Shown here one piece after another: positions 31,840 to 57,096 of a DNA stretch of 64,000 nucleotides. Both the position numbers and the translations under genes were made by a program. Position 1 is the stretch's first letter, and every line of letters starts with the position of its first letter. The notes beneath the pieces are model-generated. The model made no database searches. It was not told where the DNA came from and was given only the letters and a program-made list of their open reading frames with translations. This DNA comes from Moniliella sp. 'wahieum' (taxonomy: Eukaryota): NCBI GenBank assembly GCA_003971905.1, contig RSEE01000131.1:62001-126000 (forward strand), written 5' to 3'.

Positions 31840-33111
31840 TTAAAAGTCGGCATCGTCGTACGCCGGAACGGGTGGGTCGACGTAATCCTCAATGGGCACA
31901 GTGGGGGTAAACTGGGCATCCAGGTCGGCCGGGCAGAAGCGTTGAATGCCGGTGCGGTGGCCAAGCTGCTGAGCCACTTGTCACGTCCTTGGCATTGGGC
32001 ATCGCAATGCACCGTCTCGGTAACGTTGTCCCAGTTTTCCCCGTCGTTCGGGTCGGGTTGGGCAAGACGAGCGAGCAAGGCATGGTGCCGACGCACGACG
32101 CGCGACGACGATGGCAAAGCTGGGTCCAGAGACCGCTTGGACAGGGACAGGTACCGGTAATATTTGCCCAGCGAACGCAGGTCGCCCGATTGGTAAAACA
32201 CTGCGTTCTGCGCCGACCCAAAGCTGTCGGGCGGCGTGGCCCACATGCCAAATGGGAATGCACGCTTAAGTACCCCCCGTCGATGCAAAGAACTCTGTCG
32301 CGGCAATCATGAAGGCTTTGGCTTGCGCGGCCGACGGGTTGGAGGAAGAGGTGACACCGTACTCGGTGATCCAGATGCTCTTGTCGGGGAAACGCGAGTG
32401 GATGCCTTCAACATACTTCTTCAACTTATCGATCGACTGCCAGCTGCCGTAGTCTGGTAGTCACAACCAAGCAGTAACGGGAGGAGGGGTCAGTCATCGG
32501 AAAAGAGTAGGGGGGAGGGGAGGAAGAGAGAGACAGAGAGAGAGAGGGGGGAAAAGGACGTACAGTGGGCCGCATAATCATAGTATCCACCGCGGTTGTT
32601 GAGCGACTGGGTAAACTGCTCGAGCCAGTCCACGTTCCAGCAAATCTGAGGGGAAGAAATGTGGGTGCCGTATTGGCGCAGCGGGGCCAACTCGCGCTGG
32701 AAGGCAGCAGCGGCATCTTGGGGCGAGTAGTTGGACTGGGACTCGACGTCAGGTTCGTTGTAGGCCAAGAGGAACGGGTAGCGGTACTTGGGGAACAAGC
32801 CGCGCAGACGAGGCCAGTCCTGGTTCTTCTTGTACCCCCACCGGGTGGGCACGAATTGCAGGCCCGACTTGGACAGCTGGGGCACGTGGCCCATCTGGTG
32901 TGCGACGGAGAGGAGAGGAGCGAGGTTAGTAATCGGGGTGCGGGCCAGGGGCGGGGACGTACCTCCCAGTGGTGGTAGCTGTTAACGAGGGGAGAGCCGA
33001 TGAGCTGGTGGGCCCATTGGTTGTCGGCCGCCCAGGCGAGGCCGAGGTGGAAGGCGCTGGCGGACTGGGCCAGGACAAGGAGGGTGGCGAGAGACAAAGA
33101 GGGAGCTTCAT
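31840..33111 (-). CDS. Secreted glycoside hydrolase family 128 (beta-1,3-glucanase-like); introns 32454-32563 and 32895-32962
   Basis: Signal peptide; LGLAWA, QFVPTRWG, LLAYNEPD (acid/base Glu), AAH-YGS, KSIWITEYG (nucleophile Glu). Confidence 0.88.
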
Positions 33112-34187
33112 TGGAAAGACGGGTGGGGTGGGGGGGCTGAGAGACGGTGTTGGGTGGCAGGGGGCGTCAACCAGGACGCAGAGGGCAGGTGGTGAGGAGA
33201 GGGGGGGAGGCAACTCGCAGAGCTGGGTGGGGTGGAGGAGGAGGAGGTGGTGGTGGTGGGGATGGGAGAGGGGAAGAGGAGTAATGCGGTGCCAAGGGGC
33301 AGCCTGCCTGCATCCTCCTCCTGAGGGTTACGCTTAGCGCTTACAGCTTACGGGCCGGTTACTAACATGCATCACATGAGGCCCCCCGTTGCGCTGCCTA
33401 AGGATGGGTGATCGATGATCGGCGACGCGCAAGCGGCGATCAACACGCGCAGCACACACACAGGCGCCGTGCCCTGTCCCGCCGCGTGCTGGGTCTTCCA
33501 TCGGTGACTACGACTAGGTGACTGCAAACCGCCCCAAAAGGAAGGAGGGATGGGCCGGCGGGGGGGCAGTGTGCCCTGCGCGGATCCACCGGCGTGCCAA
33601 GCGAGTGACGTATTGGAAGTACGTGCCCGGCCGGCGGCTCGGACGGAGTGCGTAGTGCTGACTCAGGCAGGCAGAGACATGCGGTCATGCGGTGGGCCGA
33701 CGGCTGCCCCCGTCCCAGGGGGATGGACACTGCGCGGGTGCTGGGGATGGCGACACTGCCCGGGACCCGTGCCGATGCGGGCTGGCGTGGGGGCAGTGGC
33801 TGCGCCTGCCAGGGCGCAAATCCAGCCAGGGTCGCTGGTCGTTCGGCGGCGCCGCGCGCCGTGCCCGATGCGCCCAGCTTGCGTGCCCTGCCAAGGCCGC
33901 CAGCGTGGAAGCTGCACGCAAGCTGCGGCATGCACGTCTGCCGAATCAGGCAGGTGCCGCACTGCGCCCCGCAGGCTGCTGGGCATGCGCGGCATCACCC
34001 ATCCCAATGGCTCAGCCACTGCATCCACCCACGTCCCAGGTCGCCTGATGCAGATGTGACAAGTCTACATCACCTGTGATATGTGCCAGTCACACTGGTG
34101 CGGCCCAACGCTAGTCGGTGGGCGTGCCTAATGCCTTCGGTTGAGAGCACTGATGCATGATGCATGCATTAAACGTCACATGACGCG

Positions 34188-34484
34188 TCACGTGGCCTGG
34201 GCGTGCTGGGCTGCAGGCGCTGACTGGGTGCGGCTGGCGTCACGTGCCGCCTGCACCGACGCGTCCCACTCGTCGCGGCTGACTGCGCGGCGCGACACGA
34301 GCTGCAGCGCGCGGCCAGCGACGCGCCCAGCCACGCCACATCGTACTCGGCACAGCCGGCGCCGACCCCGCCGTGCTCGGCGGCACTGGCGGCCACACCA
34401 CACCCCGTCCACCCTCCGTAGCGTCTCCCTCGTCTTGTCCTTGGTCGTGGTCTTGCTCATGGGCTTGGTTGTGGTTGTGGTTGT

Positions 34485-34518
<34 letters not shown>

Positions 34519-37269
34519 GAATCGGCTTGCGGCCCGGTCGGGCGCCTGACGCCGCACGTCGATGAGCCGAGTGAGGCAGTCGCACGTCCCCGAACGCTTG
34601 GTGCGCGCCCCAATCGTTGAGCACAGCCACGTGGGGCAGGAGCGGCTTGAGGCCGCTGTAGACCAGTTCGACGTAGCTTGGAGGCGGCACCGAAGCGGGG
34701 CTGCGGCCGTAGGTGGTGGCGGTGGCGGTGGTGGCTTGCTGGACCGGGCGCGGGAGCCAGGCACGTTGAGCGAGAGCGAGAGCGGCCGTGTAGGAGGCCG
34801 AGGTAGATGGAGCAACGTCCACCGGATTTCCTGCGATAACCGATGCGTCAGGTTGGGCAACATCGAGCCCCCTCCCACCACCAACACTTGTTCCGAAAGT
34901 GGCACTCGCAAGTCAATCGGTAACGAACGTAACACATCCAACACCAGCCACTGGATCGGTACATCTTCATCCTCGTACCACCCCCCGCAGCTAGCGCCAC
35001 TGCCACTGCCACTGGCCCCGGCACAGCTGTACGGCCCCCGCTCAAATAACACTTCCCCAGCCCGTTCACGTACCCACCCAGGGACCAGCAACTGACTCGA
35101 CCCGGGCCAGTGACCTGTCGACCCCATCGACCCCGTCGACCCGGGCGGACCAAAGAGCGCTTTGAGCGCCCCCGCTCCCGCGCCACCAGCACCACCACCC
35201 CCATTAGGGGCAGCGCCGCCAAGCCCGGCTCGGCACGTGTGGCGCGCAAGGGAATCCCAGCCACACTCCCGGCCCATACGTCGGCATAGGCACCCATGCC
35301 CGCCACGCGCGGCGGCACAGGTCCATCCAAACTCGCCGCAACAGTAGCGGGCAGGGTGCGCGGTGTGCCGCCTGTGGACGATGGCGAACTGGTGCTAGGT
35401 GCACCAGGGGGTGGCGCGGCTTGCCGCGCGCACACCCACGTTTCCCACCCTTGTAACGACGCTAGCGGTACCACGGCCGCACTTGCTTTGGCGGGAGTTT
35501 GGGTAGCGGTAGCAGTAGCATTGGTGCCTGTGGTGGTGCCGGTGGTGGTAGCTGTGGATCGCGGACCGTACCGGTGCGCCAAGAGACGGCACGCATAACT
35601 TTCCTCGTCTTCGTCGGGTAACGGTGCAAGTTCCTGCGTAGGGTCTGGCTCGGGAAAACGCGGAGGACGAGTGGTATCGAGAGGCGCGATAAGACAGATG
35701 CGCGAGACGAGTTGGTCCATCACTTGCTCGGTCAATAACGAAGCAGGTACGTGGCTCACACGTGCGCCTGGCACCGTCGTACCCCCGTCGTACCCCCCGT
35801 CGTAGTCGTACCCGCAGTGGGAGTGGTACCACCAGTGGCAGTGGCAGTGGTAGTGGCATTGGGGGGGTGAGAGACGATACGTCCGTATCGCAAGAGGAGG
35901 TTTCGTAAACGGTCTTTGACGCGTTGACCTGCGCGCCTAGTGATCAGCGGTAGGGGTTGGGCAACGAACGTTTGAGGGTCCTGCGTCGCAGCGGGGGAAA
36001 GTGCTACGCCTCGTCCCCAAGCCGGCGGATACCCCGTTTCCTCCCCGCCTGAAACGTCGACCACTACCCCGCTCACCCTCCCCGTCGATAACAGCGCCAT
36101 CAGCGGAGCAGGCACAAAGGATACGCTCGGCACGCGCAGCACGCCTTCCAGTACACGCACGAGCCCGGAACTTACACTCGAGGGCGTGCTGGGCCAGTCC
36201 ACTAGGACCACGGGACGTGTACGCGCATCGATCATTAGAATGCTGCGCAGGGCAAGCACCAGACAATTGTAGGGCAGGGTAGGAGGCAGAAGCAGAATCA
36301 CAGTCAGAATCAGAGTCAGCGTCTCGACGGGTACAGCAACTTAAGTGCGCAAAACGAAGCGAGGAAGGGGTACCTCAACCCCCCCCCCCCCCCCCCTTAT
36401 TCCCCAATCTCCACTCTCCAATCTCCAATCGAATATCAAAACGTACTCGGCATAGAGGTAGCGCAGCAACTCCTCCAAGCGCGCTTCGAGCGTATGCTGC
36501 GCTTCGGCACGGTGCTTGTCCGATGCTTGGCGCGCCAAATCGGCCGTCCACAACGGCGCTGGATCCTGCTCTGTCCCGCTCCACGCGCCCTCCCGCGTCG
36601 ATCCACCCCCAGCCCCAGATCCATACGCACCCCCAGCCGCATGGCTTGCCCCATGGCCTGCCCCATGGCCTGCGCCATGCCCAAGGCCAAGCCCAGGGGC
36701 AGCACCAGGCACATGTACACTCGGGGCATTCAACATGGTGGACGAAACGTAAGCCGGCGACGCTCCGGGGGCCGCGACAGCCGTTCGTACGGCCCAAGGC
36801 GGTACACTGGACGGAACAATAGCTCGTGGCCTAGCTTCACCACTGAACCCTACCACGGTCACCAGCGAACCTAGGTCAATCACCACTTTCTCCTCGGTCC
36901 CATGGAGCGCAGCGAGACGCCGCATGCTCATCCGCCCCGCGGGCGCGGACAAGCTCGTCGACCCAGCCGACAAGGGCGCTGGTACCAAGCCTGGTGCGTG
37001 GGATGCAGAGGCAGAATGCGATGTGGGGTGGGACGCAGATGCAGATGCAGAATGGATGTGGGATGGGACGCAGGGACAGATGGGGTAGCGGATGAAGACA
37101 AGGAGGTGGGTAGAGGTGTGGAGCGGGAAGCGAGGGCGAGAGCGGGCGTGCAGCACTAGTGCCGCTGTGCCGGCGGGGCGGGTGTGGCCGGGGCGGCGGG
37201 GGTGGGGGGTGGGGTTGGGGATACAGAGGGCGAGCGCGAGGGCGAGGCGGGAGGCGGGGGCGAGGCCAT
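34188..37269 (-). CDS. ARP10: Actin-related protein, Arp10/ACTR10 (dynactin) type; intron 36243-36446; frameshifted; start approximate
   Basis: EEKVVIDLGSLVTVVGFSGEARPR, VPSVSFVPAPLMALLSTGRVSGVVVDV, LPIDLRVPLSEQVLVVGGGSMLPNL, VAWLGASLA. Confidence 0.82.
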
Positions 37270-37598
37270 GGCGGGCGCTGGGCTCGGTGCTCGGCACGCT
37301 GTGCTTGGTGCTCGGCACGCTGGGCTCGGTGCTCGCGGCGGAGAGAAAGCGCAGGAGGTGGGAAACGGCAGGCGGAAGGCAGCGCAGCCCCACGCGCGCA
37401 TGCTATCACACAAAGTGAAATGTGCAATGCCCCTTGAAAGTTGCAATCGTATGTGGGCGCGACGTCATCGGCCATGGACCATTGCGCATCTATCACGGCT
37501 AATCGGTGGGCACATGGAGGCTCGCAGGGGCGATGACGTCAGGGCCAGTTAGAGTACAGATGGGTATAAGTACAAAGTGCCTCGTTCTCCTCTGTTCG

Positions 37599-39416
37599 AT
37601 GGCTGCCCCACAGGATGGAGGACAGGCCGGCGGTGCTGCGTCTGGGGTGGACGTGCACCTCGACCTGCTCGGGGGGGCTGTCGCTGTCGGAGCGGCTGGT
37701 GTGGACGCGCGCGCTCTGTGCGCCGCTCCGCGCCAGCCTCGCGCCCACCCTCGCGCCCCGCCTCCTCTGCCCGCCCACCGCCGTGCCCACCCGCCACGGC
37801 CCCTCGCCGGCGCACGCCTCGCCCTCCACGACCTCCACCTCGCCGCCCAGATCCTGCCACGCCCTCGTCTCGGGCCCGCTGCGCCCGCCCCCTCGCCCTC
37901 CCCTCCGGCCACGCCACGCCCCTCCTCCGCCTCCTCCTCCTCTGGGTATTGCTCCTGCGACGCCTGTTGCTCCCGCTCCTTCGGATTGCCGTCGCCTCCG
38001 CCCGAAGGCGTGCACAACGCATGGTACGTGCTCTCCCCGCAGCGACAGCGCGAACGGGCGGCAGCCCATGCTGCAGCTACTACCGCTGCCACTCCTGCCT
38101 CCCACCACGCCCTGCCCTGCCCGAGCCCGATCCCCAGCCACTACCCTTGCCTCAGCCTCGGCCTCCTCGTCGCGGCCACGCTCCCGGAGCGATACGTGTC
38201 TGTTTCTCCGCGCGGTGCGCATGCTGCTCACCCCCGCGTGGGACGCACAGGACTTGCACCTTGTGCACGTGCACCGTGCTGCCCCTTACTCCGAGTGGAG
38301 GTCTCCCACACCCCTTCCCATACCCACTTGCACCACCTCCACAACTGCCACCCAGCGTACCCCAAGCGTACCCACCAGTGTACTCACCAGTGTACCCCGC
38401 AGAAGAGGAGTAGCGCCGGGCTGCCCACAAGTTTGTTCCTCGTGGGCTGGCACTGGCGGGGTACCGGGAGACCTACTACGGGAAATGTTGATCTACGAAC
38501 CCACCTTGGCTGCCGTCACGACCATCGTCAAGACCCAGCAGCACGATGACCAGCCTATCTGGGCTGCCTTGGCCCCTGCCTACCGCCATGCCCATGCTCA
38601 TGCTCATGCTCATGCTTATCCTCATGCTAGTCGTGATTGTGGTTGTGATCGGGATCGTGATTGTGGTTGTAAGGGTGAGAGTGAGGATGGGACGGGGTGG
38701 CACCCCGTTGGAATCGATCGGTACACCTACTTTGCAAACGGTTGTGCGCCTCTCAACGGACGTACTTTGAAGATGCCCTACAACTTGCTTCGGCCTCGTC
38801 GTCTGGATCCTCTGCGTCCTCTGGCGTGTCTGGGTCGCCTGGGTCGCCTGGGTCGCCTGGGTCGCCTTGGACCTCACCTTCTCCCACCGTGGATCTGGTA
38901 CCGTGCCCCCGTCCCCAACGTCATCGCTATCGTCATCGCTATCGTCATCCTCATCGCCATGGCCGTCCTCGTCCCCGTCCCTGCCACCGTCGCCATGGCC
39001 ATCGCCGTTACCGTACAGGCCAACGGGACAGGACGGTAAGGACCCACTCGGCACTGACGCGAGCATGATCGTCCCCCGCCAAACCCAAGCAACCGTCGCG
39101 ATCGCTAGTCGTCAGCCTCCGTTTTTCATCAAGGGCGCCGGGCTGAGTGTGGGGTTCGATTGTCTTTGTTTTCAGGTGCCGGCTGAGCTCCCTCCGACTC
39201 CAACGCATCCCCAAACGCAAACGCCAACGCCGACTCAACGCTCGGAGCAACGCGATGAGCAATGGAGGGAAGATCAAGGGCAAAGAGCAAGGACCGGCGT
39301 TGCGCCACATTATCTTCCAAGGTCGGTATCACCTGCACGACGCGCAAGAGTTGGCAACCATGTTGAATGGAGCGAGAGACGCGTGTACGGGGTGTCGACA
39401 ATCGATCTTTGTTTGA
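37599..39416 (+). CDS. Hypothetical protein, frameshifted, family not recognised
   Basis: TATAAGTA at 37565, then ATG; coding-like globular blocks (LLREMLIYEPTLAAVTTIVKT, WHPVGIDRYTYFANG, LRHIIFQGRYHLHDAQELATML) separated by low-complexity linkers. Confidence 0.55.
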
Positions 39417-39559
39417 TTACGGTTACGGGTGGGTGAGCGGTTGGTTGGTTGGTTTGAGACGAGACGAGGTTCGATTGGCGAGTGGGAGGGGGCATCCGCC
39501 TTGGTAAAATACTTTTTAAAATACTTTTTTCCTTTCTTCTGTTTTGTGGTTCTTTGTGG

Positions 39560-39658
39560 TTCTTCTTCTTCTTCTTCTTCTTCTTCTTCTCTTCTTCTTC
39601 TTCTTCTTCTTCTTCTTTTCTTCTTCTTTCTTCTTCTTCTTCTTCTCTTCTTCTTCTT
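39560..39658. repeat. (TTC)n microsatellite
   Basis: Directly visible. Confidence 0.95.
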
Positions 39659-40170
39659 GTCTCACCGCTCTTTCGTTCTTCTGTTATTTGTTGTCCTCTG
39701 CGAGCCTCCTGCACTGCCTCCATTGCTCCCTTACTCCCTTGCTCCATGCTTCATGCTTCATAATCCATCCCTCTGTCTCTGTCCGCCCTAATGTCAATAC
39801 TGCACTGCATAGTTCGCACTCTTCCCTTCTCCACCCGCAGCATGCCTACTCTCAAGTTGAAGATCGCGTCGGTCGCAATGAACAGAAACTACATCGACCT
39901 CTCTGGAGAGGCGGGGGCACAGCTGTCATTCTAACCCCAGGGCCCTCGTGACCAGCTGATAGATGGAATCAGCAACGCTTACGTACGGTCTCCGCGGTGG
40001 CTACGGCAGTTGTATGACGATGCATGTACCGTCGCATGACATTATTCTATCCATCTTTCTGTACTGAAAAGTGGGAGGAAAATGGGGGAGTACGATCCTC
40101 CACCATCCATGGAGAGAGGAGAGGACTACCCCCTGGTAGAGATCGAAGGAGGATTGGACAGCGGGCCGAG

Positions 40171-41588
40171 TTAGGCAGTCTCCGCCACATCCTTCTCCCG
40201 TACTTTGGGGCCGTGCTGGGCGTCATACGAACGAGCATAGGCGCGCGCATAGTCCACACCAACGCAGCCCAGAGCACGCAGCAATGCGCGTTGTGGACGT
40301 AAACGTCTTCCAACACGCCGCGCGGTTGTCCAGATTGGTGTGACCACGCCGCGCATCACCAACGCCACTGCCGCACGGCCCGGGCAGACCACACGCGTGC
40401 TCATGGGCCACCACGGCCCACGCGGCCCGTCGCAAGGCCGGGTCGGACGAGGTCAGTTGGCTCGCCACGTCCCATGCCCCGTACAAGGTTGTTGTGGCAT
40501 GGCCTTTGGCGGCGTGGCAAGTACCAACGCCGTGAGGAGGCAGCACACCAAATCCCACGCTAAAGCCTAGTAAGATCGGTCGGGTGTTTCGCCCAAACAG
40601 TAGCGCCGTACTCTTGATGCCCATCTTGACATCGTCCACTTTATCCTGGTGCGCATAGATCGTATCGTACACAATCGTCCAGCACCAACACCCTGCGTAC
40701 AACGGTACCACCGCCGCCCAGTCACAGCTCCCCGCCACCGCCGACCAGCCGAGAAGCGCACCCCAATTGAAGGCCAAGCCTGCCGTGTCGTTAGTACCGT
40801 GCACTGCGTGTCTCGATGGGGTGCAAGGAGCGCAAGGGGGAAGAGGGAGGAAGGGAGAAAGAGGGAGGAAGAGGAGGAAGAGGAGGAAGTGCGACGTACC
40901 AAGGACGGATTGGGGCCAGTAGGTGACCCGTTTCATAGCGGGGTAGATGACCACAAGGGAGAGCGACGATGCGCCCAGCACGATCGAGTACGGGTTGAGT
41001 TGCACCAGCACCCCCAGGCCGACGGACAACTGACCCGCCAAAAACGCCCAGGCGTGCGGGACAGTCAGTGCGCCCGAAGCGAGTGGTCGAGAAGCCGTGC
41101 GACTCACCCCGGCATCCAAACCGCCGATCCCACATATCGTTGATCGTGCACCCTGCTCCGCGCATCACCACGGCCCCGACCCCAAACAGAGCCAGCTGGC
41201 CCACCAGCACACTCGGACTCGCTCCCACCGCATGCGCACACAACGTCATGCTAAATGCACAGGGCCAGTACAACAGCCACGTCCCAATCGGCTTGTCCAG
41301 CCGCATCAGGTCCAGGTACGGCCGTACCTTCTCCACCAGCGACCGAGGCGCTGGCGCAGGCGAAGGAGAAGGAGAAGGCGCCGAGGGAACCACCGTGCTG
41401 ACCCCCCGTGCACCCACCCTGTGCGGCGCACAAGCAAGCGCACGGCGGGAGAGCGGCCGCGGTGGGACGGCAAGCGGCGCAGTCCAGAAGGAGCGCACGC
41501 GAGGCACCGGAGGGCGGAGGCAGACGGCAGAGGGACACACCATGCTGCGCGGCGCGAAGGGCTTCCCCCGCATCAGGATCGAGGCCAT
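40171..41588 (-). CDS. COQ2: 4-hydroxybenzoate polyprenyltransferase (UbiA family); intron 40780-40899
   Basis: [90 protein letters not shown]; mitochondrial presequence. Confidence 0.96.
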
Positions 41589-42138
41589 GGCCAACCACAC
41601 GGACGCCGGCAGCAGCGAGCAAGGCGGCTGAGCAAGCCGCCTTGCTGGCAGTAGGCGGCCCCCGTTGGCTTCGGGGCATCGGTGCAACCCACGTCACATG
41701 TCCATGTCAGCGCTGCGCTGAGGCTCAGCACGCTGGCTTCCATCGGGCGTTGCAGGTCTTCGCGGCGCGGACGAGGTCACGTGCGCCGCGCATCGGCCAT
41801 CCATTCTCCATCTCTGCCACTAGGATATTGACGCTCCCCCTCGACCGATCCGCGGTTTTTCTACACCGCCTCCATACGACTTCCGCCCACAGGCGCAGAC
41901 TCTGTGTCTGTACCTCACCCGCTTCCTCAGCACTCAGTGGACTTGGCAAACCAACTATCGTTGTTTCCCCCAGTTCTGCCACAGGCACCCTCAACAGGTT
42001 CCTTGCCGTCCATGCAGAACATCCATCAAGTAACCCGTTGGGGTTCTATCTAGGTCCTGCACACAGCAGCAGATTGGAGCAACCGTGTGCGCACGGGGAA
42101 AAACAAAGCAGGCCTCTCGGAATTCAGATACTCGTGAA

Positions 42139-43009
42139 TCAAACCTTGGCCGCCGCTGCGGCCTCAATCTTGTCCTGCGTCTTGGTAGCAAAGTCCGAAG
42201 GATCATGGCGTTCGCGCAACTGATCCTCCAACGGGCCCGTGGCCTTATTCACAATCCGGCCACGCCGCACCGCCGGACGCGCATCGATCCGTTTGGCCCA
42301 CTCCACCACGTGCGTGTACTCGTGCACGGCCAAAAACGTGTCGGAACCAGCGTACAACCGACAATGCCAACCCGCCCAGCCACGGCCAAATGGCCATGTC
42401 GGCAATCGTGTACTCTTGTCCCGCCACATACGGAACCTCGGCGAGACGACGGTTGAGCACGTCGAGCAACCGCTTGGATTCGAGCGCAAAGGGTTGATCG
42501 GGTACTCCTTCGGGTTGTGGTACGCGTAAAGTGACCTAGGTTGCCCAGGTACGGCGCGCTGCCCATCTGCCAAAACAGCCAATTGAGCGTCTCGGTCTTG
42601 CTGCGCACGTCGGTCGGGAGGAAAGCTCCATACTTCTCGGCCAAGTAGACGAGGATCGAACCCGATTCAAAAACGCGCAACGGACCACCTTCCACCACCA
42701 TGGTCCACCAGCGCAGGAATCTTCGAGTTGGGATTCGCCTCCACAAAGCCCGAACCGAATTGCTGGCCTTCCATAATGTTGATTAGAAACGCATCGTAGT
42801 TGTCGAGCTTGCCCGCTTCAATCAACTCTTCGAGCAGAATGGTGACTTTTTGTCCGTTCGGCGTGGCAAGACTGTACAGCTGCAAGTCCGTCTTGCCCAC
42901 AGGCAGCTCGGCCGTCGAAGTAGGGCCAGCAATGGGGCGGTTGATGTTGGCAAACGGGCCCGAACCGGGCTTCCATTCCCACACGCGGGGGGGATTACGA
43001 CTCGGCCAT
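42139..43009 (-). CDS. yghU: Nu-class glutathione transferase / GSH-dependent disulfide oxidoreductase, YghU-like; intronless; frameshifted
   Basis: PPRVWEW..GPFANINRPIAG, LQLYSLATPNGQKVTILLEEL, NPNSKIPAL, VFESGSILVYLAEK, EYTIADMAIWPW, RPAVRRGRIVN...QLRERHDPSDF. Confidence 0.9.
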
Positions 43010-43774
43010 GATGGAGGAGGTGGAGAGGACACGGACAGTAAGGGCGCGGGGGCGGCGGGACGTAGCAAAGACGAACGGAGAAGGGAACGCGAGTAGGGCA
43101 CAGATACGCGCAGTCTCTCCATCCACAGCTGGGCTACGAGGGGGATACGAGCGAGGGAGGGAGGTCGGGATTCGCCGCTTCAAGTAGGCAAGCGGATCAC
43201 CGATGACAAGCAGACTGCGTGATGTCGTTCGCCGCGGTGCACAGGCCATCCGGGGTGAGGCCGAGGACGGCGATAAGCGGTGGGCGGTGCGACGCTAAGT
43301 CCGGCAAAAGGGCGTGGGGGGTCGCCAGTGTGAAACCGCGCACTGGGGAGTGAGTGTCTGGGACGGCAGAACTGCAACCCCCGGCTTTAGGCCGGTGATG
43401 CCGGCTGTATCAACGCAGCCCCGCTTTCGCCCCGTGGCGTCATCGCCTTGACTGGAAAGCTTTCAATTGGCGAAGCAATCGACTAGGCCAACAAGCGCCA
43501 TAGCCAGGCCAAACGTGCTCGGCCACGGTGAAGGAGGATATAATCGAGATGATCCATCAGAGGTCAACTTGACCCGCGGTCTGGCGTTGGTTGGACCATC
43601 CCCACCAACAACAACCCGTGTCATATGAAACACGGAAGAGGCGGCTCGTAGGGAGCGGTGGGCAGCATATCTTTTGGATACACGCCCAGTGATGGGCGGC
43701 CGACTGAGCTGATGGGCGGCGACTGAGCTGATGGGCGCAGTGAGTGAACTCCACGTGAACCATCTGCGCGTCCA

Positions 43775-44022
43775 GAGTGGTGTGCTGAAGGAGGAGAGAG
43801 GTGCAGAGGCGATGAGGAGGGGGTAGGGCCGTTTATATAGCAGAGGGTACCGGGGAGCAGAGGGAGCGTCCGGGCGGATGGTAAGAGTGGTCATCGCTAC
43901 TAATCGTCCTACTATCTTCTCTGCTTCCCCGGCCAGCTCGCTGTTACGGGCGACGGTGGGTGGCCGAGCCCGACCGAGCGCATCCGAGTCCATCCTCTCC
44001 CCTTTGTCCCTGGCTTGGGTTA
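43775..44022. repeat. Copy 1 of a duplicated segment downstream of PDC, with a minus-strand TATA box (copy 2 at ~54639-54872)
   Basis: GAGGAGAGAGGTGCAG...GGGGTAGGGCC.TTTATATAGCA...CAGCTCGCTGTTACGGGCGACGGTGGGTGGCCGAGCCCGACCGAGC...CATCCTCTCCC occurs at both sites. Confidence 0.9.
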
Positions 44023-44657
44023 GGTCTACGTCAAGACTATAGTAGGCTGGCTTGCCTGAGTTCCGCTAAACGTTGAACAAACCCATGCAGTCTTTGTGTC
44101 CAAACGGAGCATGTTCCCATCGAGATCTATGCAAGTAGAAGAAGGCCTGTAGATCAGATGGCCCCTAAACTGACTTCTGAAAGAGCGAGGGAGCCGATCC
44201 CAAGCACGGAGAGGGTAAGCGACGTATCGAGAAGTTGGGGCTGCAGTTGTCCCCCGCTACTACCTCTGTCACCGTCCCCCCGAATACGAAAGGCTCCATA
44301 CATACACGTTAATAATACTACCACTGACGGCGGTGCTGCATGACGCCTACAGGATGGGACCTACACAACCTTGCCACACAAGCAGCAGCCTCATCTGCTT
44401 AACCCCGACGAGCCCCTTCTTGCCCCAATATACCCCCGCTTGGAGCCACCAATAAGCCCGAGCACGAAGAGGAAACATACCATCAGTTGGCCTTTCCAAC
44501 CCCGTTTGTACCCATAAATCCTCCGAGCTATATAATAACGGGAAAAGCGATACTACGATTCCAATTGATAGACGGAAACAAACAAGGAATTCGAAGTGAA
44601 ACAGAGAGGAGCAGAAGGGAAAACGCAAGCAAAGAGTCGGTTACACGTATCTTGCCC

Positions 44658-45727
44658 TCACAGGCAGCTTTTGATCAAGTCGACAAAAGGCTGGAAAACG
44701 GGGGAGCTAGTACCGCCGGACAAAATACTGTCATGACCATGGTTGGTATCGATGAAGAGCGAGCTGGACAAACCAGCAATGTTGGTGAAGGTGGTAATGT
44801 CCCCGCGCAGTACCTCTAGCCCACCCGCGGAAACAAAAACCTTGTCGGGCGAGGGAGAAACAGCCGACCAATCAATATAGTCCTTGAACTGGTTTTGCAG
44901 CGGGGCTTGAACTGCCTCCACATCGGGGAGATACTCAATAGCTGACTCACGGAGGAACTTGGCTGTGAGGATATCAGAATTGTTGTTGTTGCTTGCCCAG
45001 GTCCCATTGTTCTGGGTCGGGTACAAGTTGACCCATGGGCTCAACAAACCAACACATGAAGGTTTCTGGGTAATCGATGGAGTAACCGAGAGAGGATGCG
45101 CCAAGGTGCGGGCCACCTCAAGGGAGAGATGACCTCCGGCCGAATCACCAGCGAGGATAATGTTACTGCTCGATTGCGACAGACGGTTGTAAACCTCGAC
45201 GGCTTGCTGGAGCTGGGTCGGGTAGGGATAGTCCGGAGCGAGGTTGTAATCCAGCCACAGGATGGAAAGACGGTCGCTTCCGACGGATTGATAAACGCTT
45301 TGCAATTCCGTTGCAAAGACGGGCAGCGTACCAATCACGTATGCCCCGCCGTGAAGATAGAAGAGCACAGGATCGTGTTGCGTTCGGTTTTCCGCTTCGG
45401 TGAACCAGCGCACACGGTCGGAACTCACATGGGTGAGATCCGTGGCGAACACCGCATTCTTGTTGGGCATTGGGTTTGTGGCGAAAGCCTCGTTTTCAGC
45501 CAGAGTGAAGGGCGGGATCACGGAGACAACCTCGGGGGTGAAACGTTGTTCTCCAACGCCGATGCAAAGAATCCCACGATGCGGGATTCAGTTTGCTCAA
45601 CCGGATCAAACGGGCTGACAACCGGAAAGGTCAGGCGCTTGGCCATGTTGGAAAAGGTGGGGAACGCTTGAACAGTAGCGACCCCGGCGGCCGAAAGGGT
45701 GAAAGCAATGGTTTTTTGGAGCTTCAT
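44658..45727 (-). CDS. Secreted HSL-family alpha/beta hydrolase (Say1/steryl acetyl hydrolase-like esterase); intronless; one frameshift near 45535
   Basis: Signal peptide MKLQKTIAFTLSAAGVATVQA; DPVLFYLHGGAY, LDYNLAP..PYPTQL, ILAGDSAGGHL, LLSPWV, EVLRGD, HGHD. Confidence 0.88.
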
Positions 45728-46521
45728 GAGTTCTGTGCGTGTGTGGATGTATGCAATGGACCGTGGCAGACCGCCGAAAACCACGCACTATTTAACCAAA
45801 AAGATACGATCTCTTTACTCTCACGGGAGGGCGAGAGAGAGAAAGTGTATTCCCTTCTATGCCTCCGGAAGCGGCCCAAATGTCAATGCGCGAGTGGGGA
45901 ACCAGCTGCGCTTTGATGTTCCTCATAAGGCCGAGAGCTCAATGAGTGCTCTGAAGCGAGCATTCGATCGGCATCCAACGAAGAGTGTGTATTATCGGTG
46001 TGGGGAGTGGACTCAGTACCCGCACATATGCGAAGGTATACGTCTTTTTTTCGCAATGACGAGTATGAGGAAATGGGACACCCGCAAGTGTATGTGTGGC
46101 CGTTGCCCCACAGTGGGCCTCTTCCTCGTCGACGTAGGTACTCGGATTTTTTGAGTTGGGAGGATTTGGCTGATGGCGCTGACGTGTGGGGTACTGAGTG
46201 TGCTGAGGCCTCTGAGGCTATGTAGGGAAAGCTGCGTCCGCCTTGCTTCCAGTTGTAAGCACCGAAGCTTGAAGTTCATGAGCAGGCACTAGCGCATTGA
46301 ACATGGTTGACGTTGAACGTTAACTCAAGGGGGGCAGGAGGCCGCCTGGGGGAAAAGGCACAGCGAGTAGAAGCCGGCGGCCTGCTGCCTGCATCCGCAT
46401 ATGGGGCATGGGGTTTTTGTGTGAGCGCTTAGGCTAAGCGCTTTCCCCCAACCACCTCGTCACAACTGTCAACGTTGTCAACACTGGCATGTGTCACAGA
46501 TGTCAGGGAGGCTTGAGGGCC

Positions 46522-46604
46522 TCAAGCTTCAAGCTTCAAGCTTCAAGCTTCAAGCTTCAAGCTTCAAGCTTCAAGCTTCAAGCTTCAAGCTTCAAGCCTC
46601 AAGC
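46522..46604. repeat. (TCAAGCT)n heptamer tandem repeat
   Basis: Directly visible, about 11 units. Confidence 0.95.
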
Positions 46605-48783
46605 CTGGCATCTCAGAATCTGAGTCTCAGAGCTGATTTACGCGTTACGCGTTACGCCCCACTCAACATATGTATTCCAATGCCGGCGGGGAGTACGAAG
46701 TAAGTCTTGTGGGGTTGGTCCCCCCCCCGCAATGTCTGAGGCATTGAGGCTTTTTGCTCTTTTTCTGTGGGGTTGAATCAACACGTGCGACCGCGACGCG
46801 TGACGCGTATGCATATGAATATCACGCCTGGCGGAGTGCTGGCCTGTGCTGGCGTGGCAAAAATGGGGTGGACGCCTTAGGGTTAGGGATTCGGAGGTGA
46901 GCCTCTGGAGATGTATGGAGTAGCACAATGGCGATAATGGTGGTGGTCAAGGTAGGGTCGAAGCTGTCTAAAAGCCTTCTGCCACACCCTAGAAAAGACA
47001 GGGGTTCGAGCAAGGCAGAACCTACACACGAGGAAGCTTCGCAGGTCAAATACGGGGCAAAGGGTATAATGTGTTACGATCATTCCATCCTGGTTCCCCA
47101 GCGATGTTCTATAGTACTTTTGAAGTGTGGTTGTGCGGTCGTCGTAGGAAGACAGAGAAGAGCTGAGTTGAACGGCTGAACGTGTGGAACGTTGAACGTT
47201 GGAAGCAGGCCGAGGAAGAGAAATGGAGAGGAACCAGGTCAGAGGATAGGGATGCTGGCGTGGTGCCAACACATGTGGAGAAGAAGATGCCGTCTCCGAT
47301 CCTTTTGGTCAACTATGGTAAGGCTCAAGGCTTAGTTAGGCCGAAGGCCTACTAAAAAGCGCCTTGTTGGCCTATATGTACGGGGCCGCCGGTCCCAACA
47401 GTTCATCCCCTCTTTGCTCGCCGAGGCCCTCCATTATGCCCAATGTGGGGCAGGGGAACAACATCGAAATGCACCAACCTGGCGTGCCCTCCATCGGCCA
47501 TAGCGCGTAAGGCGTAAAGCGCGTAATGGGATCTGGCAGGATCTGGCCTTGGGGTCGATGAAGCTTTCTGTGGCGGCGATCGGCCACTTAGTTTAAAATA
47601 TCCAGTACTCAGTCAGAAGTTCTTCAGCGCGAGTACGAAGTATATTTTTTACACTACGGTGTTGCCAGACGGTGATCCAGTGATTGGCTTCACCGGTCGT
47701 GGAGCCCTTCCGCGGTCTCAGATCTCACTAGCTCACTAGCAGTAATACCCGAGAGCTCCGCGGACCCGAGGGGGGAGGGCGCGCGTGGCCTTCTATCTTA
47801 TGTAGCCCTCGTCTTGCAGTTTACCGCCAACGCCCATCTCGCGCTACGCTACTGTCCTATACGCTTCAGTATTCCTTGCCTCGCCGGTGGTCGCTTAACA
47901 GAAGCGGGTCTACCGACCCTTCCACTAGTAAGTAGATGCAGCAAAAGCGTGGTTGCCCGCAATGATCTTGCCACCGCCATTGCCACGACCTATGTGGAGT
48001 GTAGGTGTGGTATAACCTTTGGTTGAACGCGACGCACACGAACCTCCTTTGCGGCAAGCGCCGGATTATGACCGGAGCCACCGCACTTGCCTCACGTACA
48101 GGCACTTCGCAAACGGGATCCCGAAGAGCACTCTTCCATTGAGGTCAGAGCGCTATGGGAACGTGACACACCCGAGGTTCTCGTGACCGAGAGCCCGCTG
48201 AGGTGCAAGGAGTCTCGCCTCCCGTCCGCCCGTCCGACAGCTCCTCGTTGAAACAGAGAGTGAAGTGCTCGAGCCATACATCAAACTGGCGCGTGAATTC
48301 AGCTCCACTGCTGTACTGGCGGGGCGCCGGGGAGGATCGGTCATAGCATACTAGTATTGGAGCGTGTGCGACGCCGCCGCGACTTCACGTTTTGCCATAT
48401 TGTCGGAAGGGTGCCGGAAACTCGCGTTCCATTTTAGCTCCAGGGGAGCCAGGCTCGGCGCGAGAGATGACCAATAAAAGCACAGCACCCAGAGTGACAT
48501 CCATGACTGCGTTATAGTCAAGGTGTTGAGTCGCATTGGACTCTAGCAGGCATGATCAGCTTTCCCATCGAGATCGATGTAACGAACACACATTTTTGAC
48601 AAACCGACGGGCCCACGGGCCATAGGTTGCCACCTTGCCAGTCAAGGTAACGTACGCCACCTGATTGGCCGCCATTGATGTTTTAATGGCACTTTGAGAC
48701 AACACTGGCTCTCCGCGTTTTTGTCGGAGCAAGGCCGCAGCAGGGCTGCGTTCTGGCAGAGGATGTAGTAGTGTCCAGAGCTG

Positions 48784-49243
48784 CCACATTCCCACCTATT
48801 TCTACACAAACATATGGACTGGATTATGTGAGGAATGTCCGATATTCATGTGAAAAGGAGTGGAGGGGTCACCGACCGGCTCCAAATGGAAGTCTATAAT
48901 GCGGCTTTGTTGGCGGCGGTCGTGAAGGCGGCCTGGGCGCGAGAGCTCGAGGAGAGTCCCCTCGGGGAGAAAGACCTCGACAAGGTGAGCTTTGTCGGCC
49001 TTGTTGAATTCAGGGTCGGTCAGCAACGTCTCAAGCTCGGTCTTGGTGTGCACAGCGTGGTACGCAGTCTTGGCGGGAACGGGGTCGCTGGCATGAGAGG
49101 ATACGGCAGGTTGAGTCCAAGTGGGTGGGGGGTGAACAAATCAATCAATTTCGAGTGGTTCCAAATTGCAATGTCGTTGTATGCCTCGTCCGGACCAAAG
49201 ATCTGCCGCTCCGCTTCGTACCCGTCATTGTGAGGAGAAACAT
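48784..49243 (-). pseudogene. Duplicated 3' fragment of the PDC gene plus its 3' flank (source ~54923-55383)
   Basis: Co-linear with 54923-55383: NDGYEAERQIFGPDEAYNDIAIWNHSKLIDLF...HTKTELETLLTDPEFNKADKAHLVEVFLP; homology stops at GAGAAACAT. Confidence 0.93.
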
Positions 49244-49719
49244 CATATAGCTAATCGAAATTTCTAGCCCAGAACCTTGCCGGCCACGCCACAAGCTTGT
49301 CTTTAGATTTGAGGGGCACAACCTTGTCACAGCCTCGCCAACACAGCTAGCCCCAACCTCTTGGACCACACGGCGGCAAGGCCGCCCAGCGAGGCTGTCC
49401 CTAGATTGCTGCCTATAAAGCTCGTCGCAACCTTGTCCGCTATTCTAGTCGCAACATTTGTGAACGGCGGCCAGCCTTGAGTCATCTTAAAAAAGAGGCC
49501 GACCCACGAATCGATCCTGAGGTTTCTCCAGCAAATAGTAGGAATTGGCCGTTGCACCAATGGAGCCTAAGAATCAAGCGGCAATTTGGCAATCTTGGGC
49601 CCACATGTGCTGTGTCCGTTTTCAGCCAAGTCGCTAACAACTGATAGACTGATGGTGTAGATATACATAACAGTGGTGACTACCATCATTAGCCATTCGG
49701 GAAGTATCTAAACATTCGT

Positions 49720-52700
49720 TACGGATTGTACTGCCTCCAAAACATCGTCGGCAGAAGGGCATTCTCGCCTCGACCGCCCACAGTCCTGGGCAAAAGCCAA
49801 GTCCGCAAGTCGCAGAATATATCGGTGGGGGGAGAGAAAGAGTTGACAAAGTGGTTGAGCACGTAGCGCTGTTCCGCCGACATCCCAGACAAGTTTTGTG
49901 CTGGACCCCATCGAACGTCAAGCCAGTGGTTGTATCCGTAATGCTGTTGGGGACAACCCGGCACTTGGCCTTCACGCAATTGTGCTGGACGTTAAGCGAA
50001 CCAAGATGGTGTGGATCTGCGAAGCCGGAATGTAAGTCATGCGTCGGGCGGACGCGCGCGGTAGCTCCAGGCCTCGCATGTCATATGCCGAGTCAATAGG
50101 CATGATGCGAGCCAAAGCGACCTTGACCCAAAGCACAGGGAGCACAAGGTTGGAACCAGTCCTCGCTGCTCCCTACCCCCCCTCGCGAGTCGGATTGGCC
50201 CGCCGGTGCACAGCAACCATATTAGGCCGTTGGGCGGCAATGTGTTCTATCCAGCCAATGGAGAAGGGCGGCGCATCATGATTCTGGGCATGGAGGGGTG
50301 GGGGACGTCACCAATATCCTGTTGGGCAACAAGCACCCAGTCCCCCCTGGCACAAAGCTGGCCATGCTGTACGCGGACCACGGCATGTCGACAATATCTT
50401 CGACCGGCCCAGTGGCAGAACGCCGCTCTGCTGTCATTGGTTCAGGAAGCCCAACCTTGTCGTGCACCGATATGACTTTGGCCTTAGCCACAGTCTGGAT
50501 CGAAGTCGGACACGATCTAGCGCTGGAAGGGCTGTTGCGGCCGGTACCGGGTGCGGGAGGGACTTGCCACACACTGCCGAGCCCTTGGCCCGAGCTGAAT
50601 CGTCGTGCCAGCTTGAGGCGGTGTACCATTCAATTGCAAAGCTGCTCGGCCCCTGCCGATCCAGACGTCTGCGGACAATTTCTTGGTGTTCCCACACCGG
50701 GCAGACCCTGTGTCACATCCTCCCCTTCATCGTCAGGGTTGTATCGTGGGCCACGAGTTTTGCACGCGGCATGTCGATTGCCCGCCCTCCACATAGCAGG
50801 TTTTGCAGGTTCTCCTGGGCTGCTACCTTGTAGTTCAAGTCGCGGCATATATCTTTGCGGTTCGTAAATGACCGCATTGCGTATGACGCGGACAAACTCC
50901 TCCTCACGCTGTGTGTCAGCGTTCTTGAGAGGACCCCACAACAGCGCCTGCTGGGAGAGGTGACTCTGAAGGTGGAACTTGGGGCGACGAACGAGCATGG
51001 CCGGGTCGATGGCAGCGATGGCCATGAAAATGTGTGAATCACCGCCTTTTGTCAAGCAGTTCCTGTGGGCACATCTGTACGGGCAGAATGTAAGCTGTGA
51101 ACTTGGACTAGCGAGATGATCACGGGCCTAGGAGAGCTAGCAGTTTCAGACGTACGCCATATGTAGCCCGGTCTTGAAATGCGAAGCCATCGATGTAGCA
51201 AAAGCCACTTAATGCGTGCGGCGGCCACAATGCACTTGCGGACATTCTCCAGCCTCTCAATCTTGCTCAGAAGTCTGTCTCGCCGTTTCCGTGACGCTGG
51301 GCTTGGCGGAGTCCAACCGTAGCATGGCCGCCAAGTTGGCAGCACCAGAGGGAGAGTCTGGCACAATATCTTGCAGTCAACCCCCGTGATGACTGAGCGC
51401 ATGCTGTGAACCACTTTAGTGCCATTGAGCCGTCGACCCACCGATTCCATGCCCCATGAGTTGAACGAATCCAGCCACAGCGCTAGCGAGGGCCCCTTAT
51501 CGAAGTTCGAGTCCGTCAGCAGCTCGATCGGGCCTTGACTCGCCCAAGGAGAACTGTGTGCATGACGTCGATCGCCAGCTCTTGCCGACCGAGAAACTCG
51601 AGCACCCCTGCCATTCGTGGACAGTCAAAAGGGGGTTGAACACTTAGCCGTTGTTCTTGAACTCATCCAGCAGCTCACGAACGCCGGAGTCCAAATTGGA
51701 AAGCAGCCTCTTGCGCTTCTTGCCATTCGTCGCCCCTGCTGAGTCCTCCAGAGTCTTGCGGGACTTGAACAGGATAAAGGATACGTCTTTCATATACTTG
51801 TCGTCGTTAACCCCGGTCTGGCTCGCCCGGTCGTCGATCCGACACGGCCGTCGTTCTTGACGACCATGTCGAGTTGGTGATCGACTTCGCGCCTAGTTTC
51901 GACACTTGAATGTATATCGTCTTCCGTCTTGATGTCCGCCGGTAATAGTCAGTCCCATTTTGATGCACAGCAGTAACACCAGCGGTGTCGTATACGCACT
52001 AGACAGTCAGCCACGTTCTCCGGCAACTATTCGTTCCCAGTTGCCGTCCGCAATCGCAAAACGCAGCAGCACGTGGGCAGTCATGCCCATAATGGAAGCC
52101 ATCTCGTTCGCGGCCACGTTGTCGCCCTTTATCATCCGCAGCACGGGCTGTACAAGGATCCATCCCTCGTGGTCGAATCCCAGACAGGGATGAGCTCTTC
52201 GTGATACTGCCTGCAAGTTCGAAAAAGACGTTAGCATGCTGCTTTTGCCCAGGAATCACAGTGACTTCAAAGGCAACTTGGCCTAGACTGCGATACTCAC
52301 TCTAGCTGTTTTACCAACTGCTTGCACAACGGGAGGAGAGACTTGGCCGTTTCCGATGCAAAGAGGAAAAGGTTCTTTGCCCATCTAGACTGCGACCGTG
52401 AACGTGCATGTTGCCCGGCAGCATGCTGTTCAGAGAGATTGGCCGATTGGACACATTGTCTGCAAAACCATCAGCCCAGCCCACCAGCTGTGGAGACGGA
52501 CCAGAGCTCGGCCACAGGCCTTGGCTCCAAGGGGATTGACGCCCTTCCCAATTTCCTCACCGTCCCTTGTTCCTGTATCGTATCAGGATGTGGAAGTCAT
52601 TATTAGTCAACCCGACAAGAATTGCCGCTGCGTGAAGAGCAAGAAAACTTACTAATGGTAGTATAGTCGTCGTAGAGGCGCAACTTGGTTATGTCCACCT

Positions 52701-53254
52701 GAGTAAGAATGAAGGCGCGTGTCCTCTTTTCCAGTGAACTTCAGCAGGTTGGACGTCTCGTCTTGGACCAGGTGGATTCCGATCCCGTGCCACGAGTCGC
52801 TATCAGCGTCGCGTTGCCACAAGACGGGAAAGAGAGGCGCGAAAATGCCGACCAGGTGAACAGATTCGCCAAGGTACATGTGAATAGCCAGATCGCGTGG
52901 ATGCTTATTGACCGTGACCATCGGCTGAGTCCTTGTGCCGATCAGATCCCATCGTCCCTTGTGTGGTTGTTCAATGAACCCGTCCTTGAGGGCCTGGACC
53001 ATCGCCCTGAGCGACCAGGGATTGGGATACTGTGACATCTTGGAGCGGATGGACGAGTTCGAGGACATGTATGAGGTGGAAAATGCGGTCTCACCCGAAG
53101 GACCCAATGTACATCGTCTCCTGATACAAACTGCTCGATGCACATATGAGGCGGGCACACCTTCTCGATTACCTTTTAGTTTTGTTGAGCGAGTAAGAGG
53201 CAATTTCCCTTCGCTCTTGACCGCGACTTGTGCGAATGCGGTCTTCTCTCGCAA
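49720..53254 (-). pseudogene. Degenerate fungal CACTA-like (Plavaka-related) transposase; intron 52211-52300
   Basis: Ordered motifs across frames: IKGDNVAANEMAS (~52120), FNPLFD...IDVMHTVLLG (~51640-51545), RPKFHLQSHL...WGP...REEEF...R...TNR (~50980-50865), LNVQHNCVKAKC (~49995-49960), RYVLN. Confidence 0.8.
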
Positions 53255-54255
53255 CGAGACGGTTGGACTGGAGTATCGTGCTGTATATAGCTGCTGTTAC
53301 GACTATCTCAAGTGCGTAGCTTAAAAAAATCTATATATAAACTAAACGCTCAGGCTGCAGGTGGGCGCCTTGAGCTGGCGGTGGCGTGGGGGGGCAACAC
53401 TGGCGCCATGCGGGTGGACCACCGGTGTGCCACCGGTGGTTGCGCCTATAACCGCACGCAGCTGCGCCGATGCGCTTGCCTCTCGACTACCACCACCACC
53501 GCCACCGCCCCTCTCTCGCTGGCCACACACTGTGCTACCGGAGCTGGCGACATGTGTCCTCGTTGCGCTGCCATTATATGCCCCCCCGCCACGCGCTTGC
53601 TGTGCTAGCGCCTGGCCTCGGTATGTCCACGCCCTCCGGGCGGATGCCTGTCGCACTGACTGACCTATGCGCAGCCACCGGAACCGAGTCGGCCACGCCT
53701 AGTGGCAGGCCTTGCCTGATATCATTCGCGCCAAGATGCCGGTCATACCTCCCGAAGGCGAGTTGAAGATCAAAGACGGGGGCGCTTCGAGCGGACGGTC
53801 GACGGCGACGGGTTCTCCGGCCAGGTCAGTACCTGCGCTTTGCCTTATCCGCCCATATACTGACAACGCCTTTAAGCAGGATGATTGGAGAAGGCGCTCA
53901 AGTGCTGAGGAAACGACCACGGAACATGTGCTGGCTTGCACACAGATCATCGTTTGCCGTATGGTTGCGGGACTCATTCTCCCTCTCGAACGCGATGACG
54001 CTTCGCCTCCACGCCGCAAGTTGTATGTGGCTCTTGTATCTTTGCCCTTCTATCCCTATCATCTCGGCGTCCCCATGATGTTTTTGGTCTGCGATTAAAC
54101 GACGAAGGCAAAGCTTCTGTGGTTGCCGCCGTCCTGAGGCTCCTCGAACAACCTGCCGTTGCCTTGGCGCTCCTCTACGTCTCTGTGTCTAAACAACCAT
54201 GGCAATGCATGCTACTTTTAAAGATAATCCACTGCCTGATCTGATAGCATCGTGG

Positions 54256-54381
54256 CACCCTAGCCACCACCCTAGCCACCACCCTAGCCACCACCCTAGC
54301 CACCACCCTAGCCACCACCCTAGCCACCACCCTAGCCACCACCTAGCCACCACCCTAGCCGCCAGCCTAGCCGCCAGCCTA
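54256..54381. repeat. (CACCCTAGCCAC)n 12-mer subterminal array of the transposon
   Basis: About 10 units, decaying to the right, ~230 bp inside the right TIR. Confidence 0.92.
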
Positions 54382-55033
54382 GTGAAAATCTGTGGCTAGC
54401 GTTGCCACCAGCCTGCCAGCAAGGCTGCGGACTGTCCGGGGATAGGTGGGGGATAGCTGGGGGTAACCTGGGGCCAAGCTGTCGGGTATAGATTGTCTCG
54501 ACCTTGGCGACCATCTTGCGCAAGCTTTTCTTGTACAGGGTTGTGGCACTTCTAATCATAGACTCACGGTATCAAATTCTTACCTTGAGCGAGATCGGCG
54601 GCAACGATGTGACTAGAAATTTCGATTAGCTATCAGTGGTGCTTCCGAGGAGAGAGGTGCAGAAGGCGATGAGGAGGGGGTAGGGCCTTTTATATAGCAC
54701 AGGGTACCGGAGGGGAGCAGAGGGAGCGTCCGGCGGATGATAGAGGGGTGATCGCGAATCGTTCTATGTTCTCTGCTTCCCCTCAGCTCGCTGTTACGGG
54801 CGACGGTGGGTGGCCGAGCCCGACCGAGCCCTACCGAGCCCATCCTCTCCCTTGCCTCCCTTGCCTGGGTTACACACCTCTCTCCGGTGGGCGGGCCCCA
54901 GCCTGGGATCTGCCCATGCCATCCACATTCCCACCTACTTCTGCACAAAGGTATGGGCTGGAGTATGTGAGGAATGTCCAATGTTCATGTGAAAAGGAGT
55001 GGAGGGGGTCACCGTCGGGCCCCAAATGGAAGT

Positions 55034-57096
<2,063 letters not shown>

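Follow-up and report, generated by a model that had tools for sequence, protein, structure and literature searches.

Cut-and-paste transposons leave a short target-site duplication of fixed length, 2–11 bp, that is present once at the empty site, and the machinery of non-LTR (long terminal repeat) retrotransposons leaves variable target duplications of 10–20 nt or more. Helitrons are recognized by their 5′-TC and CTRR-3′ ends, a 3′ hairpin, and insertion between A and T without duplication, and Starships by a tyrosine-recombinase captain gene at one end and a length of tens of kilobases or more. A further arrangement, in which a transposon sits where two tandem direct copies meet, has been documented as a product of reversed-ends, or alternative, transposition in the Ac/Ds system (PMC3744419). 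Here, we describe a locus of this kind in a 64,000-nt stretch of Moniliella sp. 'wahieum' (GCA_003971905.1, contig RSEE01000131.1, positions 62,001–126,000, forward strand; the whole stretch is referred to as the window, and all coordinates are window positions), where a block of about 4.7 kb carrying an esterase gene interrupts one of two direct copies of a short segment, and a 5.39-kb element bounded by terminal inverted repeats (TIRs) lies between the copies. A first-pass annotation had viewed the esterase-bearing DNA, bracketed by a 21-nt direct repeat, as an insertion that might represent an undescribed gene-shuttling element. We give about an even chance to another reading, namely that break repair, in a locus rearranged by a transposon, added or removed the block once, and that the block is not a gene-shuttling element.

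The borders of the block are set by the window itself. About 750 bp, comprising the 3′ end of a decarboxylase-like gene and the DNA downstream of it, are present twice in direct orientation, as seen in a scan for pairs of 21-mers matching at 19/21 and in self-blastn, and the order along the locus is a glutathione S-transferase (GST) gene, copy A split by the esterase block, the TIR element, and copy B running into the rest of the decarboxylase gene. The paralogy and its break points were taken from self-blastn and alignments, with the block borders given for strict and lenient gap costs; copy B is a paralogue of copy A, not a true empty allele. The parts concerned are as follows.

43776–44022, forward strand: left part of copy A, matching copy B at 54635–54872.
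44023–48783, no strand assigned: A-only block, 4761 bp by strict local alignment, absent from copy B.
48784–49243, forward strand: right part of copy A, a 3′-terminal fragment of the decarboxylase-like gene with downstream DNA, ending abruptly at 49243.
49247–54633, no strand assigned: TIR-bounded element of 5387 bp.
49247–49267, forward strand: left TIR, ATAGCTAATCGAAATTTCTAG.
54613–54633, reverse strand: right TIR, the exact reverse complement of the left one.
54635–55383, forward strand: copy B, uninterrupted, starting 2 nt after the right TIR and running into the full-length decarboxylase-like gene.
54873–54922, forward strand: the stretch of copy B that faces the A-only block, 50 nt left unaligned under strict alignment.

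On the left of the block, A 43791–44022 and B 54647–54872 are 86% identical over 236 columns by blastn (the lenient alignment starts at A 43776 and B 54635), and on the right, A 48784–49243 and B 54923–55383 are 92% identical over 465 columns. With lenient gap costs, the homology restarts at 48709, where B 54880–54922 aligns to A 48709–48783 with a score reached in 11 of 1000 shuffles, so that the block measures 4686 bp and 7 nt are left in B; judged from this alignment, the A/B indel is nearly clean (4686 bp versus 7 nt). Self-blastn found no second copy of the block in the window, a search of the block for a source of the 50-nt spacer of copy B gave no match better than shuffles, and tblastn with four pieces of the copy B gene detected no decarboxylase remnant past 49243 in copy A. 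An index of other windows and genomes, queried by position and by sequence, contained nothing resembling the esterase, the block, the TIR element, or copy B, although this index also failed to return the second copy within the window itself. GC content is even, at 0.54–0.56 in the block, the TIR element, and the decarboxylase gene, with no composition break. The window thereby carries its own empty-like comparison, in that a paralogous copy without the block sets the block borders and no other genome is needed. Could the duplicated flanks, or the placement of the block, stem from a mis-join in an error-rich assembly? Such an artefact is very improbable: the GST, decarboxylase-like, and esterase genes are all frame-broken as assembled, but numerous substitutions separate the copies (27 within the 460-bp part; 86–92% identity), unlike a collapsed or chimeric join, and the TIRs, which match exactly, lie in register with both copies.

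Two small repeats lie around the left border. The end of the left homology (CTGGCTTG..GTT, 44010–44062) occurs twice in copy A, 37 nt apart, and once in copy B, a match as high being found in 61 of 1000 shuffles; it may reflect a minor duplication confined to the left block junction. Just left of copy A, in the upstream region of the GST gene, there is a tandem repeat with a 19–20-nt unit (43690–43737; 2.5 copies, 96% matches).

The TIR element is the only clear mobile element at the locus. It possesses the terminal inverted repeats that mark a TIR transposon, and apart from its 21/21 pair the window has no exact inverted pair of 21-mers, nor did any of 40 shuffles have one; no other match to the TIR with three mismatches or fewer occurs in the window, including the surroundings of 43776, and the exact TIR 21-mer was not found in metagenome contigs (0 matches). 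Copy A ends (49243) 3 nt before the left TIR, and copy B begins (54635) 2 nt after the end of the right TIR (54633). Thus, exactly two direct copies exist in the window, with the transposon precisely at their junction, which is the likeness to Ac/Ds alternative transposition in maize and to P hybrid-element insertion in Drosophila (PMC3744419). The likeness concerns this neighbouring element and not the esterase block. Several differences from the Ac/Ds model are apparent: there is no element before the first copy (no TIR with up to three mismatches near 43776) and no target-duplication pattern of the kind that the model entails (PMC3744419), the element has no recognized superfamily or transposase, and the duplication is short (~750 bp, or 5.5 kb including the block). 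An element before copy A may have excised later.

In the scanned open frames of the TIR element, none shorter than 55 aa, no Pfam family of any kind scores at its cut-off, and no transposase is recognizable. A 214-aa frame has 0 matches in 1.84 billion representatives, a 190-aa frame has no relatives, and the leads from an atlas comparison of the frames are no more than weak: unnamed basidiomycete clusters at 0.90, and clusters of DUF6830 and DUF4218 at 0.85. It is possible that the element is non-autonomous, that it has decayed, or that the duplication event rearranged it. Its right part contains an array of a 12-nt repeat, (CACCCTAGCCAC)n, at ~54254–54400, and an intron-like stretch (GTCAGT ... 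CTGAC ... AG) lies at 53826–53880 within a small open frame whose ATG is at 53737; this frame may be a spliced orphan gene.

The direct repeat from which the earlier interpretation started is present as described, with two copies matching at 19/21, and a third, weaker stretch lies nearby.

44114–44134, forward strand: left 21-mer, TTCCCATCGAGATCTATGCAA, located by sequence search.
48562–48582, forward strand: right 21-mer, 19/21 identical to the left one, located by sequence search.
48789–48809, forward strand: a stretch that matches the left 21-mer only weakly, at 15/21, and lies 6 nt into the A/B homology where this resumes.

As for the TIRs and the block, copies of the 21-mer were counted within the 64-kb window. 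No further copy with three mismatches or fewer exists on either strand, and the suggestion that the 21-mer might be a common dispersed repeat, which would have told against an insertion, does not hold there. Matches of at least 15/21 number three in the window versus 1.6 in shuffles, a number at chance level, and only the placement of 48789–48809 is odd. For a window-wide test of chance, direct pairs of at least 19/21 among non-repetitive 21-mers were counted in 40 shuffles keeping local composition: the mean was 0.95 pairs, 25 of the 40 shuffles had at least one, and in six the members were 1–10 kb apart. The real window has seven such pairs outside the diagonals of the paralogous segment, three of them dispersed (10964/24548, 13982/33789, and 44114/48562). 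By itself, and window-wide, the 21-mer pair is no more than what chance provides in 64 kb.

These counts bear on a possible, though rather doubtful, account in which the pair is a coincidence and the GST and decarboxylase genes were ancestrally separated by the block, which was duplicated with its flanks and then deleted from copy B. About one such pair per window is expected, two further dispersed pairs in the window match equally well, the nearly clean indel resembles ordinary end-joined deletions, and mobile hallmarks were not found in the block, all of which this account would accommodate; what it leaves unaccounted for is position. The A-only block encloses both 21-mers, the left one standing 91 bp from the left end of the block and the right one 126–201 bp from the right end. 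When about 300 × 380 bp round the block ends, which are set independently by the paralogous copy, were compared with 300 shuffles, the 21-mer pair scored 32 against a shuffle maximum of 27, and none of the 300 reached 32. From the density of pairs, the chance of one falling so near both block ends is put, as a rough estimate, at ~1e-4 to 5e-4. Because of the block-end test and this placement estimate, the pair is not viewed as a pure accident.

Being placed near the ends does not make the 21-mers the ends. Copy B has no 21-mer with three mismatches or fewer, its best match being 14/21 at 54928, as frequent in shuffles, and it has none of the A-only DNA lying outside the 21-mers; therefore, without a 21-mer in copy B, the pair cannot be the target duplication or the att core of the A/B indel. 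There is no similarity beyond the 21 nt, since the flanks of the two copies score no better than 349, 134, and 282 of 1000 shuffles, and the sole direct match at both the block ends and the inner ends is the 21-mer pair itself. The weak inverted similarity that had been noted at the inner ends beside the 21-mers is at chance level (226 of 1000 shuffles as high), as is the inverted match at the block ends (198 of 300). The divergence of the two 21-mers (2/21) is of the same order as the 8–14% between copies A and B. Of the initial proposal of a 4.4-kb insertion bounded by the repeat, the presence/absence difference between A and B and the nearness of the 21-mers to both ends are upheld, but the borders are different and the 21-mers lie inside them.

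A search for the hallmarks of mobile DNA in the block was carried out against the known classes. Pfam was run on 106 open frames (minimum length 55 aa) from 45.75–54.65 kb, plus the frames of 43.4–46.2 kb, and no recombinase, transposase, or reverse transcriptase domain was found among them, in agreement with the first-pass statement that no transposase is present. The esterase is the only Pfam match inside the block; the 106 frames gave six further matches below threshold (CH_2, Copper-fist, DUF1952, PELP1_HEAT, TPR-S, and PT). Rfam over 42–58 kb returned no family at the gathering score, and the only tRNA, a tRNA-His at 61912–61993, is far from the block.

With the 21-mer-bounded unit taken as a cut-and-paste TIR transposon, there are no TIRs, the repeat is 21 bp long, and copy B holds no copy of it at up to three mismatches. 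Neither is an LTR retrotransposon or other terminally redundant structure indicated, the similarity being confined to 21 nt with unlike flanks and the scanned frames having no reverse transcriptase, integrase, or RNase H domain. Pack-MULEs, Helitrons, and Starships resemble the locus in that a host gene with its own upstream region sits inside a presence/absence block. In contrast to Pack-MULEs, the block lacks long TIRs and a 9–11-bp duplication; in contrast to Helitrons, the unit ends in GTAG... and ...CAGCT rather than in 5′-TC and CTRR-3′, and neither the unit nor the A-only block has fitting ends on either strand, no hairpin search having been made; in contrast to Starships, no tyrosine-recombinase captain is encoded in the scanned frames, and the block, at only 4.7 kb, is far smaller. 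Site-specific integration of the att type, as by integrases of phages and integrative and conjugative elements or by Cryptons in fungi, shares with the locus a unit bracketed by direct repeats of ~20 nt. It differs in that no recombinase domain is found in the scanned frames, copy B lacks the core, and A-only DNA extends outside the repeats.

It is still conceivable, if improbable, that the 4.4-kb unit is a non-autonomous, cargo-carrying mobile element, integrated in an att-like or circle-mediated fashion or moved in trans by an enzyme making ~21-bp target duplications, with copy B as a site of imprecise excision from which ~100–200 bp of each flank were cut out as well. A direct repeat near both ends of a presence/absence block, an esterase with few relatives, none of them named (best 53%; six with E < 1e-46), and evident cut-and-paste activity next door would suit this idea. 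The obstacles are that copy B has no 21-mer, that terminal inverted repeats and subterminal similarity past 21 nt are lacking, that no recombinase or transposase occurs in the scanned frames, and that the unit is single-copy in the window; moreover, we know of no eukaryotic cut-and-paste family that makes 21-bp target duplications. The sole match to the direct 21-mer pattern in metagenome contigs (L001) has unrelated, coding-looking flanks and is treated as chance. If such movement in trans were real, it would constitute an undescribed gene-moving element, and fungi would have a novel route for shuttling single genes; with no TIRs or LTRs, no mobile-element domain in the scanned frames, and no second copy in the window, the gene-shuttling proposal finds no support.

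Retro-mediated capture, in which a long transcript would have been reverse-transcribed and inserted by non-LTR retrotransposon machinery, is scarcely credible. The length of the repeat would fit target-primed reverse transcription, but no A- or T-run stands beside either 21-mer, the unit holds its gene in antisense together with the upstream region, promoter included, 3 kb of repeat-bearing non-coding DNA, and microsatellites, and copy B is without the 21-mer. This part of the earlier interpretation is not supported.

Instead, we favour, at the even chance stated above, break repair in a locus that would be a transposon-rearranged spacer between the GST and decarboxylase-like genes. The 5.39-kb cut-and-paste-type element may have come to lie between two direct ~750-bp copies of its target when transposon ends on sister chromatids inserted nearby, i.e., by alternative transposition; fill-in of a very long staggered break would be another route to the duplication. 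The block would be a single piece of chromosomal DNA with one of two histories. In the first, copy A took it up at a break after the duplication; in the second, it already lay between GST and decarboxylase, was duplicated along with its surroundings (5.5 kb in all), and later disappeared from copy B through a nearly clean deletion. As for the 21-mer pair, its most likely origin would be as the by-product of an older or concurrent step of break repair or insertion, in which a short piece of the target was duplicated or a gap was filled in from a template; the pair is not the att site of a self-contained gene-shuttling element. Capture or deletion by end joining at double-strand breaks resembles the locus in the single-copy block without mobile hallmarks, the nearly clean junction, and the short direct repeats near the ends; it differs in that the 21-mers stand ~90–200 bp off the junctions and that additional templated snippets are not significant. 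While the repeats, the A/B indel, the TIR element, and the position of the latter are seen directly, the order of events and the repair mechanism are what we infer from them.

Several points weigh against break repair as proposed here. The data fit a gain in A and a loss from B equally well. The 21-mers are 91 and 126–201 bp inside the block edges, which neither a simple insertion nor a simple deletion predicts. Their origin as a repair by-product is something that we infer, and the left junction, once the 21-mers are masked, has no significant further templating: its similarity to the right end was equalled in 10% of 1468 control windows where direct matches are concerned, and in 53% of them for inverted matches, and a patchwork of templated snippets at this junction was dropped as a candidate. 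The TIR element has differing flanks, ACATCAT and CAGTGGT, with no sign of a target-site duplication, and only one transposon copy is present, whereas the maize model predicts an element before each repeat. In addition, there are many frame breaks in the assembly, so small differences between A and B may be errors. If the reading is correct, the locus would be an ordinary case of a short intergenic region being remodelled by break repair together with a neighbouring DNA transposon, and a caution against taking a lone short repeat for a target duplication; the TIR element exactly at the junction of a direct duplication would be a textbook outcome of alternative transposition, seen here in a fungus with a compact genome.

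The contents of the block are a secreted-type esterase gene and 3 kb of non-coding DNA. A codon-usage scan revealed no clear second gene in 45.8–48.7 kb, and the features recognized are the following.

44658–45727, reverse strand: esterase gene of the Say1_Mug180 / Abhydrolase_3 type, by Pfam.
45534–45538, no strand assigned: 5-base homopolymer where the two esterase frames meet.
46522–46604, forward strand: heptamer array, (TCAAGCT) × 11.9, which had been noted at first pass.
46638–46657 and 47167–47204: smaller 7-nt arrays.

The 7-nt units all consist of TNA followed by a 4-nt palindrome: TCA + AGCT, TTA + CGCG, and TGA + ACGT.

The main frame of the esterase, 309 aa in length, passes the Pfam cut-offs of Say1_Mug180 (82.5 bits; cut-off 21) and Abhydrolase_3 (77.9 bits; cut-off 25), and belongs with the esterases of these families, the nearest known enzymes being the Say1 / Mug180 steryl acetyl hydrolases with the Abhydrolase_3 (hormone-sensitive-lipase-like) fold. 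The HGG oxyanion motif, the GxSxG nucleophile motif, and the catalytic His are kept, with H79-G80-G81, G147-D148-S149-x-G151 (GDSAGG), and the C-terminal H285-D286 invariant in seven aligned sequences, i.e., the esterase and its six closest relatives. Unlike Say1 / Mug180, the cargo esterase has an N-terminal exon-like frame (MKLQKT...) that looks by eye like a signal peptide. A total of 262 proteins with E ≤ 0.001 were retrieved among 1797 candidates, only six of which have E < 1e-46 (53, 46, 40, 45, 41, and 39% identity), all unnamed, the next E value being 2.6e-21; the closest, P0001, is 53% identical, and its N-terminus aligns with that of the esterase straight across the frame change. At 1070 nt, the length of the coding sequence is not divisible by 3, and the signal-peptide exon is read in one frame and the catalytic part in another. 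On the strength of the sequence, the esterase gene is judged real but frame-broken as assembled, and the break is probably an assembly indel; it is read as an assembly error because other conserved genes of the window are broken likewise. Accordingly, the first-pass description of a complete secreted esterase is retained with respect to the gene, its family, and its signal-peptide-like N-terminus, but not with respect to completeness.

The genes on either side of the locus show the same kind of damage.

42139–43179, reverse strand: YghU-type GST gene, left of the locus, frame-broken as assembled.
55034–57096, reverse strand: decarboxylase-like gene with TPP_enzyme_M and TPP_enzyme_C domains, by Pfam.

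The GST matches residues 7–108 of chain 3c8e_A in one frame and residues 111–165 in another, with no space for an intron. The decarboxylase-like gene has several frame changes inside contiguous conserved motifs and at least one intron-like stretch; its best relative (P0122) is 63% identical, and canonical fungal pyruvate decarboxylases are ~40% identical. The broken frames in the GST, decarboxylase-like, and esterase genes point to indel errors in the assembly, widespread pseudogenes being less likely.

GC content is 0.53–0.57 at ~44–61 kb, and also at 22–32 kb, versus 0.60–0.71 at 1–22000 and 32000–44000. Given this low GC and the few, unnamed close relatives of the esterase and the decarboxylase-like gene, ~44–61 kb may be an accessory-type region. 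Elsewhere in the window, the long frames of an eIF4G-like gene (3135–6299) and an ALG6/ALG8-like gene (20404–22008) are parted by single in-frame TGA codons at 3669–3671, 5469–5471, and 21241–21243, which may be due to short in-frame introns, errors, or other causes. A long C homopolymer is present at 8906–8930, adjoined by a (CCTTTG)n array at 9232–9410 that has a related copy at 1372–1404.

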